From: Nitrososphaeria archaeon
Lineage (GTDB): Archaea; Thermoproteota; Nitrososphaeria; Geothermarchaeales; JDFR-13
Direction: 5' to 3'
Length of the DNA: 64,000 nucleotides
Assembly (NCBI GenBank): GCA_027078545.1
Contig: JALWXN010000004.1
Location: 448,001-512,000 of the forward strand
The notes beneath the pieces were generated by a model. That model worked only from the letters and a program-made list of their open reading frames with translations. It searched no databases and was not told where the DNA came from. Positions 19,956-63,522 of this stretch are shown one piece after another (positions within the stretch are counted from its first letter, which is position 1; each line of letters begins with the position of its first letter). The translations under genes were made by a program, and so were the position numbers.

Positions 19956-20528
19956 ATGACTGACGACGCCGTGAGGCTTGTATTGGCAATCGTGTTGATC
20001 CTACTCATAGGCATATTCCTCATACCACTTTTGATGATGCTCTTCATGGGCTTCCAGTTCTCCATGCCCATGATGCAGGGCATGATGGGGGACGGTGCAC
20101 ATATGTTCGGGATGTTCATACCCTTCTGGTCCGTCTTCCTGATCCTATTGGTCCTCCTGGCCGGGGTGATATACCTCCTCTCGACGGATAGGGGGAGGGG
20201 CCTATATACTCGTGAGGGTGGAAGGGTGGTTGTAGAGCCCGTGGCTAGGGAGGAGGCTAGGGATGATGCTGTGGAGCGGGGTGATGAGGAGCCTGAGATA
20301 ATGAGGGTCTTGAAGCCTGATGAGCGCCGTGTAGTTGAGCTCCTGATCGAGAATGGGGGTGTGATGCTCCAGAAGGATCTCAGGTGGGAGCTGGGCATGA
20401 ATAGGGTGCAGATACATAGGATCCTTGAGAGGCTGGAGGAGCGTAACATCATTGTCAGACGGTCTGTAGGGAATACTAATGAGGTTCGCCTGGCGGACTG
20501 GTTGATGAAGCGTTACAAACGGGAGTAG
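19956..20528 (+). CDS. Membrane-anchored wHTH protein with Met-rich loop
   Basis: Two TM segments flanking MPMMQGMMGDGAHM; C-terminal L.PDERRVV...LQKDL...RILERLEER.II...GNTN. Confidence 0.8.
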   Translation: MTDDAVRLVLAIVLILLIGIFLIPLLMMLFMGFQFSMPMMQGMMGDGAHMFGMFIPFWSVFLILLVLLAGVIYLLSTDRGRGLYTREGGRVVVEPVAREEARDDAVERGDEEPEIMRVLKPDERRVVELLIENGGVMLQKDLRWELGMNRVQIHRILERLEERNIIVRRSVGNTNEVRLADWLMKRYKRE

Positions 20529-33797: not shown

Positions 33798-33855
33798 ATA
33801 ACCATATCAACAGCCAGAGTCATTAAAGCAATACACCACCCAAGTACTCCGACAC

Positions 33856-35762
33856 CAACAAACCCTTCCTAGTCTGGTTCTAACGGGACCCGGAGTTCCA
33901 AGAGCTGATACGAGACAAGATAGTTCTTTCAACCCTTCCTAGTCTGGTTCTAACCTAAGCGCTACATATGGCTAGACTACGACACCAAGAGCGAAGCTTT
34001 CAACCCTTCCTAGTCTGGTTCTAACTCAAAATCCTTATGCAATACCCAGTCTCTATACCGCCAACTGCTTTCAACCCTTCCTAGTCTGGTTCTAACTATA
34101 TGGCTAGGCGTGATCCTCATACTCGTATACATACTTTCAACCCTTCCTAGTCTGGTTCTAACACTGCTTCTCGGCAGCCTAGGGAGGTTGATGATGCTGT
34201 TGCTTTCAACCCTTCCTAGTCTGGTTCTAACCTTTTCACTCGTGAATGATGTGATCAGGAAGGAACTGACTTTCAACCCTTCCTAGTCTGGTTCTAACGA
34301 CTATGAGGTATTACTAGGACTCTACGTGGGCAACGAGTTCCTTTCAACCCTTCCTAGTCTGGTTCTAACGTTTCAGGCTCTGCGAAGTCGATCATGGTGA
34401 ATGCGGTCTGCTTTCAACCCTTCCTAGTCTGGTTCTAACTTAACTATGTCGGGATTCCTGACATAGCGTGAAGACTGAATCTTTCAACCCTTCCTAGTCT
34501 GGTTCTAACAATCGAGTGGAATCTCAAATGTCGATGTGAGATTCGTCCTTTCAACCCTTCCTAGTCTGGTTCTAACCAGTTTCGACGACTCCCGCCCAGC
34601 TGGGTGCAGATACATATGTACTTTCAACCCTTCCTAGTCTGGTTCTAACCTGAGGGCGGACTTGTCTAGGGGGAATTGGGCTGGATATCTTCTTTCAACC
34701 CTTCCTAGTCTGGTTCTAACACCTCTGGGGCGAGAACCGGGACTATAGACACTACCCCCCTTTCAACCCTTCCTAGTCTGGTTCTAACATTAAACCGCCG
34801 TAAAAGTGATAATGCAATGGGAATAGCCTCCTTTCAACCCTTCCTAGTCTGGTTCTAACGAGATAGAGATTACAGCGAGGCATATAGAGTATATTCTGCA
34901 CCTTTCAACCCTTCCTAGTCTGGTTCTAACAAATGTAAGGACAGTGGGCACTACTATCTTTACTTCGATAACTTTCAACCCTTCCTAGTCTGGTTCTAAC
35001 TATACTGATGTGAACTATCATAGACAGTACGGTAGCTTCCTTTCAACCCTTCCTAGTCTGGTTCTAACACAGACACATAGACAGTACAGGCGTGATTACT
35101 CTTGTCGTTCTTTCAACCCTTCCTAGTCTGGTTCTAACCCTTGGATCACTACTTCGGTAAGTGTCAATGCATCTTGGGCTTTCAACCCTTCCTAGTCTGG
35201 TTCTAACTATTCCAAGAGTCTAACATCATGATATATGTTTTCGATCTTTCAACCCTTCCTAGTCTGGTTCTAACACGCTTGAGGATTTCTTCGAGCTTTA
35301 TTTCAAGCACGAGATCTTTCAACCCTTCCTAGTCTGGTTCTAACATTATGAGAAGTTCATGTCGCAACTGAGGAAGTTATACGATCTTTCAACCCTTCCT
35401 AGTCTGGTTCTAACCTATGTTCATCTTCGTATCGCTCACCATTGCTATCCTAATTCTTTCAACCCTTCCTAGTCTGGTTCTAACTACGGGGTGAATGTGG
35501 AGGCCGCCATGAAGGAGTTTCTCTCTTTCAACCCTTCCTAGTCTGGTTCTAACCCCCCAAGGCGTCAATAGCGCTCCCGCCACACCCAAGACTTTCAACC
35601 CTTCCTAGTCTGGTTCTAACTGTATAGTCACGATTCGTGTTGATGATGAGACGCTTAGGATTATGACTTTCAACCCTTCCTAGTCTGGTTCTAACACCCT
35701 CATTGAGATTGTAGCACTCCTATCAGGGATCGACTTTCAACCCTTCCTAGTCTGGTTCTAAC
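33856..35762 (-). CRISPR. CRISPR array 1: 28 repeats, 27 spacers (about 37-46 nt); repeat GTTAGAACCAGACTAGGAAGGGTTGAAAG (29 nt, minus strand)
   Basis: Identical repeats; degenerate trailer repeat at the left end; AT-rich leader at the right; GAAAG 3' end gives orientation. Confidence 0.98.
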
Positions 35763-35900
35763 CCGTGGGTTTTCTTCTGTTTCTATATAGGTATTTCTTG
35801 TGTTTCTCTTATTTAAGTTTTATGTGTGTCAAACCTCTGATCCTGCAGGGGGTTTATAAAGATGTGACGCAAAAAAGTATATAAACCCTTATAAAGGGGG
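35763..35900 (-). promoter_or_regulatory. CRISPR leader 1
   Basis: AT-rich; highly similar to 49935-50070; TATA-like elements. Confidence 0.85.
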
Positions 35901-35920
35901 TTAGGTGGGGAATCAGTTTG

Positions 35921-44714: not shown

Positions 44715-44823
44715 TGGAGCCGGGGCCGGGATTTGAACCCGGGTGGAGCAGGTGTCCGCCGGTCATCCCTGGCTTGGTCTCTACACCTGCAGCCTGCCGC
44801 CTAGACCACTCGGCCACCCCGGC
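44715..44823 (-). tRNA. tRNA-Cys(GCA) with 33-nt intron at 37/38 (44754-44786); CCA encoded
   Basis: Cloverleaf with GCCGGGG/CCCCGGC acceptor stem, U73 discriminator, GCAGG/CCTGC anticodon stem, TTCAAAT loop; CUGC/GCGG central helix with ACA bulge. Confidence 0.92.
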
Positions 44824-44882: not shown

Positions 44883-45716
44883 TTGGGTATTTATATTGTA
44901 TCAGGTCTCCAACCAAGTTGTGTCGGGCGTGGGTGTATAGCTGTGGAGCTAGTGACGATGATCCTCCTGGGCCTCTTCGGCCTGGGGGTCTCGATACTCT
45001 CGGCTGTGACTGGTATCGGTGGCGGGGGGTTCTACACTCCGGTGCTACACTTCGTCCTCGGGCTTGAGATTAGGAATGCCCTGGCCGTCTCCAGTGCGGG
45101 TATACTGGTTGGGAGTGGCCTCGCCTCGATAGTCTATCTCAGGAGGGGAGTAGCTAGACTGGGCATAGCCCTACCGATACTCGCCGGCCAGCTAATCACC
45201 TCAGCCATAAGTACTTATCTCACGGTCATTGTACCCAAGACCGTGATATACATCGTCCTGGCCAGCGTACTCCTCTACAACGCCCACCGGATACTGGGTG
45301 ATAGGAAGGTGGGGCGCGGAGGATCCAGGGAGCCATCCATCGCCGAGCTGATCCTTATCGGGCTTGTCACCGGCCTGATAGCGCCTTTGGCCGGTATAGG
45401 GGGAGGGATAATCATCGTTCCTAGCCTAGTAGCGCTATACGGTGTCGATAGCAAGGTGGCCACGGCCTCCTCACTCCTCGTCATAGCCCCATCATACATC
45501 CTCGTAACCTCGATGCACATATGGCTGGGCAACATGCTCCCAGAATACGCAGCACCACTCGTCGCAGGGATCCTGATAGGAAGCCTGATAGGCACAATGG
45601 TACACAAGAGAAGCGGGAGCAGGGAGATAAGGCTGCTAGTCGGACTAATAGCACTAGCCTTCGGAATATACACGTTATACAAGCTAGGTGAGCTGTTAAT
45701 CTTGCTCAACACATAG
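44883..45716 (+). CDS. TauE/SafE sulfite exporter family (true start probably ~44943)
   Basis: Duplicated GIGGG..P motifs; ATASSL. Confidence 0.85.
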   Translation: MGIYIVSGLQPSCVGRGCIAVELVTMILLGLFGLGVSILSAVTGIGGGGFYTPVLHFVLGLEIRNALAVSSAGILVGSGLASIVYLRRGVARLGIALPILAGQLITSAISTYLTVIVPKTVIYIVLASVLLYNAHRILGDRKVGRGGSREPSIAELILIGLVTGLIAPLAGIGGGIIIVPSLVALYGVDSKVATASSLLVIAPSYILVTSMHIWLGNMLPEYAAPLVAGILIGSLIGTMVHKRSGSREIRLLVGLIALAFGIYTLYKLGELLILLNT

Positions 45717-45784
45717 ACGTGGGGGATATGTGAAAGTAAGTTTAATTATTTCCTTGTCAAAATAGTTTGACTGGTGAGTAACTG

Positions 45785-46201
45785 GTGGGGATGGATAGGA
45801 TCCAGAGATATGCAGATGAATGGCTTCCGGAGGAGATTCGGGTCATACTGAAGGCGCTGGGTAACGAGACTAGAATGGCTATAATAAGTTTCCTCTATGA
45901 GGAGGAGCCAACCACGTTTGTTGAGATTGTGAAGGGGTTGGGTCTGAAGAGTAACAAGCTCTCCTACCACCTTAGGATTCTTAGTCAGGCCGGCCTAATA
46001 GACAGGTACTATACTAGGGAGGGTGGCAGGGAAAGGATAACATATACATTGTCAGACCTGGGTAGGCATGTATATGAGTCGGCTCCAGTCATATTCATCC
46101 CCCGTGAAGCACTTGTTCGGGAAGTAATAGACCGGAAAGCTAAGGACATGATCAACATGTCTATGACGACTATGCAGATAATGGACAAGTTGCCACGGTG
46201 A
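45785..46201 (+). CDS. ArsR-type wHTH transcriptional regulator
   Basis: KALGNETRMAII...LSYHLRILSQAGLI...YTLSDLG. Confidence 0.85.
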   Translation: MGMDRIQRYADEWLPEEIRVILKALGNETRMAIISFLYEEEPTTFVEIVKGLGLKSNKLSYHLRILSQAGLIDRYYTREGGRERITYTLSDLGRHVYESAPVIFIPREALVREVIDRKAKDMINMSMTTMQIMDKLPR

Positions 46202-46211
46202 GACTCTAGCA

Positions 46212-46577
46212 ATGACGGATGAGTATCACGTGTTCCTAGAAAGGCTTATTCAGCATCTCAGGACGCTAAGGACCAGGGATGACATAGAACTAGACGATGT
46301 TCTCAGGCTTTCGGAGATTGATAAAGAGGCTGTAAGATGGTCAAAGGAGAGAAGGATCCTTAACCTATATATTTTCGCCAGAATATCGTTGTCTACCCGG
46401 TTGGTACCATATCTTATCTTTAATACAGACCCGCCCAAGGACCTTATCAGAGAGATACTTGGTAGTCTGGAGAAACTGGTAGAAGCCATTAGAGACGAGG
46501 ATATGGATTTAGTAGTGGAGGCTCTACTCGATTTTATCACGATAGTGCCGTTCAAACTGGAGGGGTCAGAGACATAG
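46212..46577 (+). CDS. Hypothetical helical protein
   Basis: Open frame 10 nt after the upstream stop; plausible codon usage. Confidence 0.6.
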   Translation: MTDEYHVFLERLIQHLRTLRTRDDIELDDVLRLSEIDKEAVRWSKERRILNLYIFARISLSTRLVPYLIFNTDPPKDLIREILGSLEKLVEAIRDEDMDLVVEALLDFITIVPFKLEGSET

Positions 46578-46642
46578 TGCGCTCCCCCGGCTCAGAACCC
46601 AAAATATAACAAGATATGCACACAATCTAAGATTATCGGGAC

Positions 46643-47206
46643 ATGTCCTCAAAACCTAAGAGGAAGAAGCCGTATAAAGCATTGATAGATAGGTATAAGA
46701 GGTCTATAGAAGTTGTTATCCTCGGTCCTTATAGAAGAATAGATTTATTGGAGGCCCTAAGGGACACGCTGATTGAGAGGGGATTTAAAAAGGTTTTTCT
46801 AGCTAAGGATCTTGATCCAAGAGAGGTCATAGGCGAAGATATAGATGCTCTGAGCGAGGACGAAATAAACAGGATGATGAGTGAATACGTCCTTAAAAAT
46901 AGTGACTTTAGGGTCTTTGTCATCGCCTCACCGCCTGAGATAAACATAGGTGTCTATAGCGAGCTTGAGATCTATGTGAATAGTAGATACTTCGACCGTC
47001 ACGCATGTATAGTCCTAATTGAGAGCTCCCTATATGATGAGAGGAGACAGACACTCAGACTAGGGTCCTCACTCCCAGCTGGGTTGCTTAAGATACGGGA
47101 TCTCCCTATTGAACCATATAAGGATGAGGGTGAATTCGAGAAGGCTGTGATGGGCAGGCTAATAAAATTTATCCATGCAAAGCTTTCGTCACAAGAGGAA
47201 GATTAG
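46643..47206 (+). CDS. Nucleoside deoxyribosyltransferase/TIR-like Rossmannoid protein
   Basis: VVILGPY...L...GF...FLAKD...SD..VFVI...GVYSELE pattern. Confidence 0.5.
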   Translation: MSSKPKRKKPYKALIDRYKRSIEVVILGPYRRIDLLEALRDTLIERGFKKVFLAKDLDPREVIGEDIDALSEDEINRMMSEYVLKNSDFRVFVIASPPEINIGVYSELEIYVNSRYFDRHACIVLIESSLYDERRQTLRLGSSLPAGLLKIRDLPIEPYKDEGEFEKAVMGRLIKFIHAKLSSQEED

Positions 47207-47433
47207 TGCTTCGGATACATAACATGGCCTTAAGGATATGGATAAAATGGAATTGTTACGTTGGTTACTGGGTTTAGAGGCTAGCCAACCATGAGGAACT
47301 ACACCATCGAGTGTGATAGAGGTCCCACCCACATTATATAATTCTTCTTGCAGATCGATTTGTGATTAAAAAATAAATACACTAGCTACGCCAATTACTC
47401 CCTATAGATGGGTTTAACAAACTATATGGTGTA

Positions 47434-47685
47434 TTGGATTTGAGTGAAAAACGTGCCGTGATGCTTAGCAAGGAAACTCTGGAGGCCCTCGGGAGGATCA
47501 AGATGGAGAGGGGGTTCGCCAGCCTTGATGAGGTGGTGAGGTGGCTCATCGCTAGGGAGAGGAGGCTTAGACTGCTGGAGGTCTTGGAGGAGGCCTGGAA
47601 TGAGAAGCCCTCAGAGGATGAGTTGGAGAGGCTGGTCGAGACCGTTGGGATGCTAAGGAGGAGTGGAAAGTGGTTGACAAGGTAG
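47434..47685 (+). CDS. vapB: VapB-type antitoxin (RHH-like)
   Basis: AVMLSKETLEAL..IK...SLDEVVRWLI; overlaps the PIN gene. Confidence 0.7.
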   Translation: MDLSEKRAVMLSKETLEALGRIKMERGFASLDEVVRWLIARERRLRLLEVLEEAWNEKPSEDELERLVETVGMLRRSGKWLTR

Positions 47686-48085
47686 TGGTGGATACCTCCT
47701 TCCTAATAGAGCTCCTAGACAGGGGTAGGAGGGAGCTGGTTGAATATATCGTTGATAAGGAGGTTCTGATACCCTTAGTCGTACTCTACGAATATCTCTA
47801 TGGATATAGGTCATTGGTAGGGATGTGTCGAGGAGGGAGAGGATATTGGAAGGTCTGGGAACCATAGTATGGATGGATCAGAACATACTACTGAAGCTGA
47901 TAGATGTGAGGTATAGAGCTGAGAAGGAGGGCCAAAAGATCCCGAAGGCAGACCTGGTAATAATTGCTACTGCATCGACACACCAGGCACCGATACTCAC
48001 GCTTGACAAGGCACACTTCACCAGACACAGTATTGCAGATGTACAGGTAATCATCCCTGATCAAAACCAAAGATTTATGCGCTAG
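47670..48085 (+). pseudogene. vapC: VapC PIN-domain toxin interrupted by a frameshift near 47811
   Basis: VVDTSFLI and LYEYLYG in one frame; DLVIIATA...ILTLD..HF in another. Confidence 0.8.
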
Positions 48086-48219
48086 GCGATTATGCGGTAA
48101 TACCGGGGCTAAAATTCCTACTTATGGGTGGCCTAAGGAGATGCTGTGTGTGAGGGTTGCCCGAAGAAGTGGGGATAGCCTCATACTAGCCCATTCCAAA
48201 TTTTTGTGGCGGTAGCTCC

Positions 48220-49235
48220 TCTTGGGCAGGGCTGCATATGTAGGGGTTGGATGCAATACATATGCATTAGCCCCCCAAGATTCAAGCCATACATATTCAA
48301 TTATCCCCCCATATCCGCCTGTCCAATGTCTACATATGACCATATCCCCCTCCAAGACATATTCTACCGCCCCCTCCCATAACTCTCACATATTACTCTA
48401 TCCCCTCTTCCCAGGCTAGTGTTGATAGAAGCGTCATGGAGGAGGGTTAAGGAGGGGTCTCTATATATTTGTGGGATAGAAGAGCCCCCTTATCCCTCTC
48501 GGGGAGGTATAGGAATATGTAGTCCCGCCATAGGGACATATTCTCATGGCCCCTCGGAGCTCTGGACATGGTGGAGACATTTAGAAGGTCCTGAATATTT
48601 ATCCCTTTTAAGGATCGGTTCTCCAAGCCGTTACAGTTATTGATAGATGGTTTATAACAGTTCCCTAGAGGGAGGGGTAAGCTATTATACGGGCTATGGC
48701 TCGTTTAGGGCTGACAATGGATAGATGAATACGTGGTGTACAGCCGAACATATATTTTTACATCCCCCTCCAAGACCCAGATCCTCAGCAAGCTCCACAA
48801 ACCTGCATGTGGGATCTGTGGAGATGAATGTGTAGGGCTGGGCAGGGGCTGTCTGGGACGCTTCACAACCCCCACGAACCATCATCGACAACCCAGCCCA
48901 GACGTGTGGAGGGGGGAGGGGGTGGAGATGAGGAGGTGTCGGGAACGCTAAACTCTCCACAAAGCCATGTTGAGTATTTGTGGAGCGGGTTCGGAAATGT
49001 GGGGGATAATGTCATATGTATATCGCTCCATAGACTAGGGCTAGATAGAGTGATAGAGTATAGCTAGGCAGAGTCATAGGACACAGGTAGATAGAGCCAT
49101 AGGGACAACCCAGCAACCACACCATAATATGTGTTGTCCTGTGTTGTTGTATTTGTTTGTGTGTTTGTGTGTTGTGTTTTTGTTCTGGCTTATATGGTTT
49201 TGATGTGTGTATGTGTGGTTTGTGTTGTTGTTTGG
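48220..49235. repeat. Non-coding locus with iterated ACATAT-N7/8-CCCC motifs, two 31-bp palindromes and a GT-rich tract
   Basis: Copies at 48258, 48291, 48332, 48357, 48388, 48536 and 48748 (+), and 48501-48520 and 49001-49019 (-); palindromes at 48793-48823 and 48955-48985. Confidence 0.7.
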
Positions 49236-49355
49236 CGTCGCTATCTATAGCTGATCAACGGGGCTTGTAGGCTATGCTGATCTCATCTCCTCCCATGCAT
49301 CATAGCCATGTATCCTCATGACTAGGCCAATGTCTCGTCAATAGACACTTCATAA

Positions 49356-49625
49356 GGGATCGGCTATAGCTGGACCGGCGATACTCCACTCTTCCCACCT
49401 GTTCCTGGGCTTGGTTATGACCCGTTCCACGAGTTGGAGACGGTGTTCCACAGTGTTGCTCCATATGTCAGGTATGTGTATGGGGAGGTGTATCACCTGA
49501 GGGGGCTGAACAGGAGGTATGTCGAGACTGCTCTAGGCGTCCCTGTTGGCTACGACCCAGCCCTCGACACGGCTCTGGGGAGGAGGTTTGAGCGTCTCAT
49601 GAGGCTATACGGCTTGGATGGTGGA
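49356..49625 (+). pseudogene. Orphan coding fragment abutting CRISPR array 2
   Basis: Host-like open frame PPVPGLGYDPFHELETVFHSVAPYVRYVYGEVYHLRG... running into the trailer repeat; no convincing 5' part. Confidence 0.45.
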
Positions 49626-49934
49626 CTTTCAACCCTTCCTAGTCTGGTTCTAACCAGAGCCGTATATTGAAGACGAGCTCCGTAATCTTTGACTAGACTT
49701 TCAACCCTTCCTAGTCTGGTTTTAACTCTACCTCACTGAGCTCCACCGTGTCACCGACTGACAGGTCTTTCAACCCTTCCTAGTCTGGTTTTAACCAGGG
49801 AGGTGGTGGAGTAGTGGCGATTGAGGATCTTGTTAGCTTTCAACCCTTCCTAGTCTGGTTTTAACGGGCTCTATATCTGGACTTCTCATCGATGGATGTT
49901 GCGTTCTTTCAACCCTTCCTAGTCTGGTTTTAAC
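49626..49934 (-). CRISPR. CRISPR array 2: 5 repeats, 4 spacers; same repeat family as array 1
   Basis: Distal repeat identical to array 1; the four leader-proximal repeats carry GGTTTTAAC instead of GGTTCTAAC. Confidence 0.97.
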
Positions 49935-50070
49935 ACAGGATTTTCATTTGTTTCTATATAGATGTTTTTAGTGTTTCTCTTATTTAAGTTTTGTGTGTGT
50001 CATATCGCTGAAGTTGAGGGGGGTTTATAAAGATGTGACGCAGAAAAGTATATAAACCTTTATAAAGGGG
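49935..50070 (-). promoter_or_regulatory. CRISPR leader 2
   Basis: Homologous to leader 1, e.g. GTGTTTCTCTTATTTAAGTTTT and GGGGGTTTATAAAGATGTGACGCA. Confidence 0.85.
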
Positions 50071-50114
50071 GTCTTGCTTCTTGGTGATCTTCCCTTCTTT
50101 TGCTATTCTTTGTC

Positions 50115-50768
50115 TCAGGATTTGTTGATGATTTCTAGTGCGATTTGATATATTTCTAGGTATACTTCTCCTAGGTTGGTAAGTCGGTATCCTCCTCCTC
50201 TTCCGGGTAGTTTTATGACTAGTCCTTGATCCTTGAGCTTCTTAGCGGTTGATCTGTTTTTGCTAGTTCCCTTTTTCTTTATGTTGTCTAGCTCGTCTCG
50301 GTATTTGACTATCCAGGTTGGGGACATGTTTTTTATGGGGTTGAAGATAGGTACTTCGACGTGTCTCGACACGTTCTCGCTATATACAAATATTTTGGCG
50401 ACTCTGGGATCCATCTGTCCGTATAGGGTGAGTATGGATACTTGGCTCCTAGTCCCTCCGGAGAGTAGGAGGACTATGGGGCCTTTATACTTATCATCGT
50501 TGTTCCAGGTTGCCTCTATCAGTTTCTTTATGGATGGGTATACGTCGGCGTCGTCGATATCGACTATTTTATACCTATATTGGTTAAAGGCCTGTTCTAT
50601 AGCGTCCTCCGTCTCCCTAACCTTTTGTAGCAGCCCCTCGTCCCTATCCTCACCTGTCTCTGGGCGTACAAATATTATCCTGTCTTCCTCTGTAAGGCTT
50701 ATTTCCTTGAACTTTGCAAGGACATTTGTAATGTTGAACCCGATGCTCACGATGTATATCGTCATCAA
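50115..50768 (-). CDS. csa3: Csa3-like CARF-wHTH transcriptional regulator
   Basis: IVSIGFN, DRIIFVRP, LSGGTR (cf. SGGMR); C-terminal L.DQGLV...YRLTNLG wing; adjacent to a CRISPR leader. Confidence 0.8.
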   Translation of the reverse strand: MMTIYIVSIGFNITNVLAKFKEISLTEEDRIIFVRPETGEDRDEGLLQKVRETEDAIEQAFNQYRYKIVDIDDADVYPSIKKLIEATWNNDDKYKGPIVLLLSGGTRSQVSILTLYGQMDPRVAKIFVYSENVSRHVEVPIFNPIKNMSPTWIVKYRDELDNIKKKGTSKNRSTAKKLKDQGLVIKLPGRGGGYRLTNLGEVYLEIYQIALEIINKS

Positions 50769-61178: not shown

Positions 61179-61271
61179 AGCCGGGTGGCGCAGCCAGGCA
61201 GCGCGCCGGGCTCATATCAAGCTCCGGGGGATACCCGGAGGTCGGTGGTTCAAATCCACCCCCGGCTACCA
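61179..61271 (+). tRNA. Initiator tRNA-Met(CAT) with 16-nt intron at 37/38 (61217-61232); CCA encoded
   Basis: A1:U72 pair; three G:C pairs in anticodon stem CCGGG/CCCGG; CTCATA^A loop; TTCAAAT; TATA at 61144. Confidence 0.92.
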
Positions 61272-62144: not shown

Positions 62145-62244
62145 AGAAACCCAGGGAAAAACAGACAGCCAGAAATACATAAACAAAAACTTACCACATC
62201 TAAAACCCCTCTGGATACAAACATACCACCAATAAACACCCACC

Positions 62245-63522
62245 AAAACAAACCCTCATAGGTATGCTGGAACTCCTTCATCACTAGGCTTGCTAGATAC
62301 TCTGCCACTGTGTTTCAAACCCTCGTAGGTATGCTGGAACCAGTGCATTCCTGATGAGGTCGAGGAATGTCCTAGAGTTTCAAACCCTCGTAGGTATGCT
62401 GGAACGAGACCGACGAAGCCGTGTAGCGGGTGGAGACCCGCGTTTCAAACCCTCGTAGGTATGCTGGAACCCTGTCCAGAGTTCCCAGTATACGTTACTA
62501 TCCACTAGTTTCAAACCCTCGTAGGTATGCTGGAACTAAGGGTTAAGAAGATGCCAGTGGAGGAGGGCGGTCGTTTCAAACCCTCGTAGGTATGCTGGAA
62601 CCCACACCGCCACCACCACCGCCACCCAAGACGGGCTGTTTCAAACCCTCGTAGGTATGCTGGAACTGTCCTTGTCCTCTTGGGGGTGGTTGAAGTGACG
62701 ACTTGTTTCAAACCCTCGTAGGTATGCTGGAACACTCATTCCTGTCTCCCTCCAGGATTTCGACCGGTGGTTTCAAACCCTCGTAGGTATGCTGGAACGT
62801 CCTTGTTTTTGTCCTTGGGGGTGGTTGAAGTGTCGTGTTTCAAACCCTCGTAGGTATGCTGGAACCTAGAGCCGACCAGAACCTACAGAAAATCAGAGCC
62901 GCGTTTCAAACCCTCGTAGGTATGCTGGAACACTCATTCCTGTCTCCCTCCAGGATTTCGACCGGTGGTTTCAAACCCTCGTAGGTATGCTGGAACCCGA
63001 AGTAACCATCCCCTAGCCACCACAGATAGCTGAAGTTTCAAACCCTCGTAGGTATGCTGGAACTTTTTCAGACAAAATGGTGTTTTTGTCGGGTTTTTAG
63101 TTTCAAACCCTCGTAGGTATGCTGGAACGTGATAGCCATGACCAACGCCGACGTATTCGACGTCTCGTTTCAAACCCTCGTAGGTATGCTGGAACACGCA
63201 CTGTTAAGATTATATGTACGCAGTGCATTCTGTTTCAAACCCTCGTAGGTATGCTGGAACGTGATTCCATGGTGAAGCCTATTCACGACGACATAGTTTC
63301 AAACCCTCGTAGGTATGCTGGAACTCCGTGGGCCCGCCACCCTCCCTGGGCGGGCGGCTTGTTTCAAACCCTCGTAGGTATGCTGGAACGCGTCGTTCAC
63401 GCTGAACCTGGTGGACTGAGGTGAGAAGTTTCAAACCCTCGTAGGTATGCTGGAACCCTTGTTGATGATTTCCAGTCTTCTCAGTATGGAGTCGTTTCAA
63501 ACCCTCGTAGGTATGCTGGAAC
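62245..63522 (-). CRISPR. CRISPR array 3: 20 repeats, 19 spacers (35-38 nt); repeat GTTCCAGCATACCTACGAGGGTTTGAAAC (29 nt, minus strand)
   Basis: Identical repeats; degenerate trailer at left; AT-rich leader at right; GAAAC 3' end. Confidence 0.98.

Follow-up and report, generated by a model that had tools for sequence, protein, structure and literature searches.

A locus-specific array of two-part ACATAT/C-run motifs, putative protein-binding sites, beside a CRISPR array in an uncultured archaeon

What is the role of a 1.3-kb gene-free stretch that repeats one short, two-part motif next to a CRISPR array? We addressed this question in a 64,000-nt stretch of a Nitrososphaeria archaeon, hereafter the window (C4:448001-512000 of assembly G000; plain coordinates are window positions). 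G000 comprises 1.24 Mb in 11 contigs, has a GC content of 52% and is 92% complete. The repeated element, motif A, consists of an ACATAT box and a run of C, and we scanned both strands with the strict pattern ACATAT-N6-9-CCCC. Nine copies of the form ACATAT-N7-10-CCCC were found within 48258-49019 (C4:496258-497019). We suggest that one sequence-specific protein has at least nine putative sites here, arrayed along the locus and recognised as DNA, a reading to which we give a probability of about 0.45. The copies, and the block of this locus that is common to G000 and its congener G003, are as follows.

48224-48241, minus strand: weak motif A (ACATAT-N9-CCC), paired in inverted orientation with the copy at 48258; the C-run half of this weak copy is lost in G003
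48258-48276, plus strand: copy 1, ACATAT-gcattag-CCCCCC
48291-48310, plus strand: copy 2, ACATAT-tcaattat-CCCCCC, identical in G003
48332-48350, plus strand: copy 3, ACATAT-gaccatat-CCCCC; G003 has the cores intact and differs at 4 of 8 spacer bases
48357-48374, plus strand: copy 4, ACATAT-tctaccg-CCCCC
48388-48405, plus strand: copy 5, ACATAT-tactctat-CCCC
48501-48520, minus strand: copy with a 10-nt spacer
48536-48553, plus strand: copy 6, whose first box is ACATGT in G003
48748-48768, plus strand: copy 7, with a 10-nt spacer; its tail ATCCCCCTCCAAGAC equals that of copy 3, and it lies in the part absent from G003
49001-49019, minus strand: copy 90% like copy 3 over 20 nt, which with the copy at 48748 brackets the inverted repeats B1 and B2 described below
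48219-48696 (478 bp): block common to G000 and G003:C6, 86.9-87.4% identity

Seven copies lie on the plus strand and two to three on the minus strand (two strong, one weak). The spacers measure 7-8 nt, or 10 nt at 48748 and 48501-48520. A previous sequence-only reading of this DNA had reported seven plus-strand copies and two strong minus-strand copies (48501-48520 and 49001-49019), and all were present as quoted; its statement that the first five stand in tandem at 25-41-bp spacing was also confirmed, with head-to-tail intervals of 33, 41, 25 and 31 bp. Of the two weaker copies it proposed, the one at 48224 has the ACATAT box, although followed by CCC only, and the one at 48454 is not a copy of motif A, since its box reads ACAAAT in this genome. 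Three short exact repeats, ATCCCCCTCCAAGAC, GCCATAGGGACA and GACAACCCAGC, each occur twice, as that reading had said.

Alignment of the nine copies showed that ACATAT, mostly preceded by T, and CCCC(C) are common to all. Motif A is asymmetric and two-part: (T)ACATAT, then a run of four to six C at a distance of 7-10 bp, with about 13 bp between the centres of the boxes. Across the five direct and four further copies, these two boxes (10-11 nt) are shared, and neither the 7-10-nt spacer nor the flanks are. The spacer shows only a tendency to end in TAT, the 17 positions past the C-run are near random, and the likeness between copies ends by about 20 nt.

The strict pattern matched nine times in the window (eight sites, one of them unrelated, at 20088), against an expectation of 1.61 +/- 1.56, and none of 100 shuffles reached nine matches. 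Across the 1.24-Mb genome there were 33 matches on both strands, 7 of which fell inside 760 bp at this locus. The possibility of dispersal at similar density throughout the genome, which the sequence-only reading had named as grounds for refutation, was therefore not borne out, and the array is locus-specific. We also sampled 401 genomes of the class for pairs of motifs 5-30 bp apart; only G000 and G003 had such pairs, each of them at this locus, and a backward control pattern gave none. We also counted 9-mer repeats in 48086-49355 and obtained 47, compared with 19.8 +/- 7.7 expected; 2 of 400 background windows reached that number. After motif A and a G+T-rich tract were masked, 11 repeats were left versus about 10.6 expected, indicating that the excess is motif A itself and not general scrambling.

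The non-coding stretch itself is unusually long. A stretch of 1,540 bp separates the stop codon of vapC (48085) from the first CRISPR repeat (49626), and its final 270 bp are the relic of a gene. CRISPR arrays and ribosomal RNA (rRNA) aside, the locus is the longest stretch free of open reading frames (ORFs) on the main contig. The earlier remark on an exceptional gap in a gene-dense window thus held, with 1.3 kb free of genes, as did its description of an array of oriented, protein-site-like motifs beside CRISPR array 2: the array is real, locus-specific and bipartite. The GC content of the segment is 0.44-0.49, versus 0.53-0.58 in the surroundings. A frameshifted vapC flanks the array on one side, and the C-terminal relic of a radical-SAM gene followed by CRISPR array 2 on the other:

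47434-48085, plus strand: vapB and vapC, the left border; vapC (PIN domain, 47670-48085) is split into two overlapping frames, and vapB is intact
49356-49625, plus strand: radical-SAM C-terminal relic (residues 208-290), cut off by the first CRISPR repeat

The relic is 42% identical to an intact paralogue (G000:C1:83263-84159, minus strand), the match running over 49383-49622, and its N-terminal 200 residues are gone without trace. The best match to the locus among public sequencing runs was a hydrothermal-vent metagenome, and no RNA run was listed among the public runs as containing the locus. Unitigs of a public run span 47464-49047 and 49018-49653, and per-contig depth is flat; because these unitigs bridge the locus, its junctions are not assembly artefacts.

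Copies on both strands favour recognition of duplex DNA over an RNA motif. Since the boxes are kept, the spacers are free, both orientations occur and the array is confined to a single locus, recognition of the duplex by one protein that reads two boxes would fit the pattern. Under this proposal, both boxes would be contacted by a single protein that has two DNA-reading parts, or by two proteins paired asymmetrically. The five head-to-tail sites (48258-48405) could load a co-oriented, directional row of proteins, and the opposite-facing sites at 48224, 48501 and 49001 could close the complex. Two palindromes further right, CTCCACA-N17-TGTGGAG, may be sites for a second, dimeric factor.

We searched 31 relatives and, in addition, the whole order (17 genomes). 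The block was shared only with the congener G003, on a 3.6-kb contig (C6); the order-wide search otherwise gave only a trivial 26-nt match in G011 (E=0.001). The gene order on G003:C6 is TauE (3' part), a winged helix-turn-helix (wHTH) gene, a 121-aa gene, a 187-aa gene, vapB, a broken antitoxin-like gene, the block and a terminal CRISPR repeat, which the right end of the block directly abuts. Thus the place of vapC is taken by a different antitoxin-like gene that is also broken. The flanking genes are 91.5% identical between G000 and G003:C6. Identity at 4-fold sites (45369-47696) was 59% for TauE, 96% for wHTH, 76% for the 121-aa gene, 90% for the 187-aa gene and 77% for vapB, and the 68 bp upstream of the wHTH gene are identical. 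Within the block, the two genomes differ at 3 of 70 positions in the motif cores, at 11 of 56 in the spacers and at 46 of 352 elsewhere (Fisher's test: p=0.009 for cores against spacers, p=0.02 for cores against all the rest). Of 477 circular shifts, only 12 did as well as the motif cores. These comparisons suggest that the boxes, and not the block as a whole, are modestly constrained.

The right-hand part gave a different result. Positions 48697-49355 are missing from G003, and a contig of run X2, from a second study, matches 48733-48833 with 13 differing letters and two gaps and then continues with different sequence. Hence the right-hand part differs in all three genomes or contigs; the synteny that the sequence-only reading had proposed to examine was preserved for the left block in G003 and not for the right-hand part. 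G003 is otherwise distant from G000: it has its own transfer RNA (tRNA)-TauE locus on another contig, at 65% identity, and the orc1 region of G000 has no DNA match in G003, while G002 matches it at 89%. The segment is far more similar between G000 and G003 than are their core genes. Because of this discrepancy, either the segment was transferred between lineages or C6 was mis-binned from a closer relative. The flanking genes were not found at the DNA level in the other three congeners (84-89% complete).

Several points weigh against a protein-binding array. A right-hand part that varies in every relative is not expected of an indispensable element. If G003:C6 is mis-binned, the comparison may cover less evolutionary time than the word congener implies. 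The block is 87.4% identical, compared with 79% overall at neutral 4-fold sites (59-96% per gene) and 88.5% in the intergenic stretch 47207-47433; since the whole block is no better kept than neutral sequence, constraint rests on 70 core positions in one pair of genomes. The invariance of the boxes within one genome is partly built into the motif, because motif A was defined after the copies had been seen. The 25-41-bp spacing is irregular, with whole helical turns approached in only three of the four intervals. The wHTH gene of the island, which encodes a candidate binder, has a different palindrome, GTCAAA-N4-TTTGAC, in its own promoter. Finally, Pfam, NCBIfam and PADLOC scans of the neighbours gave no rep, par or integrase gene nearby.

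Some of these observations would also suit a functionless remnant, in which a short unit was copied locally, in a region without selection, and is now in decay, the shared boxes being leftovers. The locus sits among broken genes (the frameshifted vapC and the truncated radical-SAM gene), it is a hot spot of rearrangement that continues in three different ways on the right, and its overall identity to G003 is at the level of neutral sites. Template switching is suggested by exact duplicates of 12-15 nt and by the junction-like GCCATAGGGACA|ACCCAGC. However, uniform decay would not spare 10 positions in nine copies and leave the 8 between them near random; the cores changed less than the spacers between genomes (3/70 versus 11/56), and copy-to-copy likeness stops by about 20 nt. 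We consider a remnant of this kind unlikely.

We then considered a coding or decayed-coding origin of the locus. A Pfam search in eight frames over 48125-49254 at E<=0.1 returned nothing except a DUF4400 row (E=0.086; 12.8 bits, cut-off 27). A search for a decayed gene in 48086-49355 gave nothing significant beyond residues 208-290 of the radical-SAM paralogue. No ORF was kept between G000 and G003; in the longest shared frame, where DNA identity is 88%, 8 of 41 residues differ before register is lost. The sequence-only reading had named alignment of the region to a decayed gene or an insertion sequence (IS) as a refuting outcome; 49356-49625 is a decayed gene, and the searches with 48086-49355 gave no sign of either. 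A single site at C4:153112 that overlaps a start codon prompted the idea that motif A combines a Shine-Dalgarno sequence with a start codon; this was rejected, as the minus-strand ATGs in the array lead into immediate stops or short unconserved frames.

A non-coding RNA gene was also weighed, with five GGGG-N8-AUAUGU units on the minus strand or CCCCUCC units on the plus strand, acting as a sponge or as CRISPR read-through. The minus strand of the block folds mildly better than shuffled sequences (z = -2.6; 0 of 100 shuffles fold as well), the G003 block directly follows the last repeat in the direction of precursor CRISPR RNA (pre-crRNA) transcription, and the C-rich left half can pair with the G-rich right half. 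The 16S rRNA ends in GGATCACCTCC, so that CCCCUCC resembles its tail and is anti-Shine-Dalgarno-like. However, copies on both strands do not fit an RNA motif, and the plus strand folds with z = -1.6 only. Rfam gave no match at the gathering score and, at E<=5, only an 18.7-bit chance match to a small nucleolar RNA. A scan of 47900-49700 found no terminator-like site, the consensus used being that of a bacterial intrinsic terminator. The consensus fold, drawn from just two aligned sequences and hence no test of a structure, had only 3 of 135 pairs changed at both positions. An RNA gene is accordingly quite unlikely.

Because the leader of CRISPR array 2 sits at the far side of that array, the motif A array is on the trailer side, that is, the leader-distal side with the oldest spacers. 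The elements concerned are:

49626-49934, minus strand: CRISPR array 2, five repeats
49935-50075: leader of array 2, on the far side of the array, adjoining csa3
50115-50768, minus strand: csa3
48398-48426, plus strand: single 19/29 match to the CRISPR repeat, in the orientation of the array

The leader of array 2 (about 140 bp) is nearly the same as that of array 1 (35764-35920) and those of three further arrays. The idea that the motif A locus is itself a CRISPR leader was rejected, as the shared leader lies at the opposite end of the arrays. Comparison of the 206 spacers of the genome with the genome itself gave only 16-nt chance matches outside the arrays, none of them in the locus.

We examined whether the locus could instead be a decayed old CRISPR end composed of degenerate repeats and spacers. 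The G003 block starts right after the terminal repeat, and the 19/29 match at 48398 is in the correct orientation, with a 16/29 match 58 nt before it. The site at 48398 is a weak lead, however, because there are 18 such 19/29 matches genome-wide; matches of 14-16/29 are background, at 20 per 1,540 nt. In addition, the motif spacing of 25-41 bp differs from the 69-72-bp period of array 2, and the tails of the motifs are no more repeat-like than shuffled repeats (288 of 2000 were as good). This origin is extremely unlikely.

The trailer side showed further features of its own. The terminal, oldest repeat of array 2 (49626-49654) carries the array-1 variant GGTTCTAAC, and the four younger repeats carry GGTTTTAAC. 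Every other array ends no more than about 100-150 bp from a gene, and the trailer flanks of these arrays are C+A-rich on the strand that reads CTTTCAAC in the repeat (window 33800-33868 and 62200-62245; C4:522600-522907, 547900-548208 and 793027-793130). The G+T-rich tract at 49105-49245 has the opposite polarity to these flanks, relative to array 2.

A more novel reading is that the array is a working cis-element of an undescribed kind, a protein-bound block or handle of asymmetric two-part sites at the leader-distal end of the CRISPR array. It might delimit the pre-crRNA unit against converging genes, or it might serve as an initiator-distant origin or segregation site that travels with the defence island. 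We regard this reading as quite improbable.

The right-hand part of the locus contains a second kind of repeat and low-complexity tracts:

48793-48823: inverted repeat B1, CTCCACA-N17-TGTGGAG
48908-48927, plus strand: G-run (ggaggggggagggggtggag) between B1 and B2
48955-48985: inverted repeat B2, CTCCACAAA-N13-TTTGTGGAG, with the 7-nt arms and 17-nt spacing of B1
49040-49103, plus strand: 23-nt tandem unit, 2.8 copies
49105-49245, plus strand: G+T-rich low-complexity tract, GC 0.37-0.38, AT skew down to -0.95

The pattern CTCCACA-N17-TGTGGAG had escaped the sequence-only reading. Two of its three occurrences in the genome are at this locus, where 0.01 is expected per window, and the third lies within a coding region. 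The motif A copies at 48748 (plus) and 49019 (minus) bracket B1 and B2 at a distance of 15-24 nt, which gives a near-symmetric 272-bp unit with a central G-run. A CTCCACA...TGTGGAG palindrome with a third CTCCACA box was also present in another genus of the same family (G008:C1:1123417-1123455), in the 86-bp promoter region of an HTH_20/DUF7347 gene, and it is kept in a second species, G012. There it is likely an operator. The HTH_20/DUF7347 protein was considered as the binder of the palindrome and dropped, as its G000 orthologue carries a different palindrome.

A further reading is that the repeats are the ends of a non-autonomous mobile element, with several transposase or recombinase sites per end, as in Tn7 or Mu ends or arm-type integrase sites. 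Five co-oriented sites on one side and inverted copies further along would suit such ends, as would the copies at 48748 (plus) and 49019 (minus), each followed by a CTCCACAAA box at 15-24 nt, which enclose the 272-bp unit in the manner of composite inverted ends. The left edge of the shared block (48219) is moreover the point where the toxin-antitoxin cassette differs between the genomes. However, the locus was single-copy by BLAST, whereas an IS or a miniature inverted-repeat transposable element would occur in several copies, no target-site duplication was visible at 48748 or 49019, and the neighbourhood has no transposase or integrase gene. Searches of phage, plasmid and viral collections gave no match to the locus. 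In viral contigs, the motif pair occurred at eight loci, all of them unrelated high-GC operator-like or perfect tandem repeats, and the conserved 24-mer gave 0 matches; plasmid and phage collections, searched in distant mode, gave none. These results make element ends very improbable. The triple-motif pattern was found at 60 loci in metagenome contigs, none of which was BLAST-similar to the locus; their units are identical or nearly so, with one to six distinct 18-mers per locus, in contrast to the array described here, in which all spacers differ.

A non-canonical replication origin had been among the proposals of the sequence-only reading. Its statements that the motif is not the canonical origin recognition box (ORB) consensus and that no orc1/cdc6 gene is adjacent were both upheld. 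ORB boxes (GTTTCAnnTGAAAC-N3-GGGG; GAAAC-N3-GGGG, GTTTC-N3-5-GAAAC) form an inverted cluster only at C4:151.5 kb, and none was found in C4:496-497.6 kb. Cdc6_C matched only C4:150150-151355 and 283545-284747, the two orc1/cdc6 genes. The inverted ORB boxes at G000:C4:151400-151680 lie in a 320-bp region upstream of orc1 (150150-151355, minus strand) and are the probable oriC1, so the canonical origin beside orc1 is 345 kb from the motif A array. No initiator-like family was found among the neighbours at 35.9-62.2 kb of the window, although whiP itself was not searched. Nor was there an AT-rich core or unwinding element in 60-nt windows, where the GC minimum was 0.367 in the G+T-rich tract and 0.383 at 48590-48649. 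At C4:496 kb neither the cumulative GC skew nor the keto/amino curve switches polarity, both continuing straight on, so the skew check that had been proposed for the origin claim spoke against it; skew is, however, a poor guide to origins in archaea with multiple origins. The array is not the main or canonical origin of the chromosome, and the absence of ORB boxes, an initiator gene, an AT-rich core and a skew switch, together with the variable right-hand part, also counts against the non-canonical origin that had been proposed. The cumulative GC skew of C4 itself forms an unusually clean V for a crenarchaeon, with a minimum at about 160-213 kb and a maximum at about 830 kb, and the keto/amino curve turns at 194 kb and 744 kb.

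A secondary chromosomal origin, non-canonical and captured with an extrachromosomal element, was nevertheless considered. The long non-coding stretch, its two kinds of direct and inverted repeats, its G-run and the foreign look of the DNA are all compatible with one. Capture of extrachromosomal elements is the proposed route by which Crenarchaeota gained extra origins, and WhiP-type origins occur in Desulfurococcales (PMC3607249, PMC4010727). Such an origin would nevertheless have no adjacent initiator (the orc1/cdc6 genes are at C4:150 kb and 284 kb), no ORB-type boxes of its own (these are only at C4:151.5 kb) and no AT-rich core (minimum GC 0.367 in 60-nt windows), and the skew curves pass straight through 496 kb and turn at about 160-213 and 740-830 kb. 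Its flanking genes were not found in the three other congeners, which are 84-89% complete, and its architecture is not kept between relatives. We judge it very unlikely.

If the motif A copies are sites for one protein, where did the array come from? In order, the segment holds genes for wHTH, orphan 121-aa and deoxyribosyltransferase-like proteins, then toxin-antitoxin remnants, the motif A array and CRISPR. This low-GC, mobile setting, with its wHTH, 121-aa and deoxyribosyltransferase-like genes and toxin-antitoxin debris, points to a foreign origin: the array probably arrived with foreign DNA, on a mobile defence-island segment, as an iteron- or partition-type cis handle. It may now be without a partner gene, or it could have one of the island's two small, putative DNA-binding proteins as its partner. 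Within the binding-array reading, we assign about one half to a foreign cis-site that is orphaned or eroding, about one quarter to an insulator or roadblock where the vapBC and CRISPR transcription units converge, and about one quarter to a regulatory or titration site for the wHTH or 121-aa protein of the island. The roadblock between the vapBC and CRISPR units is the most attractive functional alternative.

Comparison with known systems showed partial likenesses. Plasmid replication origins have iterons, and some plasmid centromeres consist of repeats; parC of R1, for instance, has five repeats in each of two sets. Known iterons are nearly identical across 17-22 bp and lie beside their rep or par gene. 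As in these elements, the motif A sites are co-oriented head to tail, a few helical turns apart, with extra inverted copies, and the array is non-coding and lies in DNA that moves between genomes. Unlike them, motif A shares only 10-11 positions in two boxes, its spacing is irregular and no rep or par gene is near; no parA/segA-like or parB/segB gene was found among the scanned neighbours. The array is still a candidate for the centromere-like or nucleoid-organising site that the sequence-only reading had also proposed. The ToxI units of type III toxin-antitoxin systems are near-identical, have a fixed period on one strand and adjoin a toxN-type gene. Motif A similarly consists of tandem short units in a defence neighbourhood; however, its units are not near-identical, have no fixed period, occur on both strands and have no toxN-type gene beside them. 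With the ORB and mini-ORB sites of Orc1/Cdc6 it shares an asymmetric two-part site, a box plus a G/C-run about 13 bp off, in both orientations. It differs in that the box is unrelated, the order of box and G-run is reversed on the G-rich strand, and there is no adjacent orc1/cdc6 gene or AT-rich core.

Two further systems were compared by their descriptions. The Sulfolobus ucm sites of the nucleoid-associated protein UBP are 11-bp single boxes with 329 peaks in chromatin immunoprecipitation sequencing across the chromosome (PMC12141716). Like these sites of a small abundant protein, which has a role at origins and elsewhere, motif A consists of short specific sites of the kind enriched in intergenic DNA; it is set apart by being two-part and confined to one locus, on the description in that source and not on site sequence. 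The Sulfolobus Csa3a sites are described as imperfect palindromes on the leader side and in cas promoters, one or two per promoter (PMC5587795). The likeness is of repeated sites beside CRISPR, with csa3 and a free-standing Csa3-like wHTH gene flanking our locus; in contrast, motif A is asymmetric, has nine copies and lies on the trailer side.

On the sequence evidence, the motif A array is real and unique, yet it is limited to two assemblies and to what appears to be an eroding region. If a protein binds its boxes, this uncultured crenarchaeon from a hydrothermal vent would have a new DNA recognition code (ACATAT-N8-CCCC), and the array would exemplify cis-acting sites that travel with CRISPR and defence genes. 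To our knowledge, hardly any such mobile cis-sites are known from Archaea, for which the mapping of partition sites, plasmid origins and transcription boundaries is poor. Even if it were only an eroding relic, the array would still mark a recombination hot spot at the end of a CRISPR array. Of practical value is the 160-bp stretch with five sites (48250-48410), which makes a cheap and well-defined probe for pull-down experiments.

The module at 45717-47206 comprises the free-standing Csa3-like wHTH protein (45785-46201), the orphan 121-aa protein (46212-46577) and the 187-aa protein, and was found only in G000 and G003:C6. The 121-aa protein is an orphan with one homologous cluster in 5.8 billion proteins, a 93%-identical version being encoded on a recorded 29.7-kb contig, and for the 187-aa protein only feature-based leads were obtained, which point to nucleoside deoxyribosyltransferase-like retron effectors. 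The three genes form a candidate defence module. The wHTH gene has, between its start and a TATA-like box, a perfect palindrome, GTCAAA-ATAG-TTTGAC (45755-45775), which is likely its auto-operator. Just upstream of the palindrome, GGGGGATATGT joins the two motif A boxes with no spacer. The wHTH protein of the island was tried as the binder of motif A and set aside; its promoter holds GTCAAA-N4-TTTGAC and the spacerless GGGGGATATGT, which gave no link to the array. Two tRNA genes of 90-106 nt, probably intron-bearing, are located at 44718-44823 (minus strand) and 61179-61271 (plus strand); the former was found by Rfam and not by ARAGORN, and the anticodon of the latter was left undetermined by ARAGORN.

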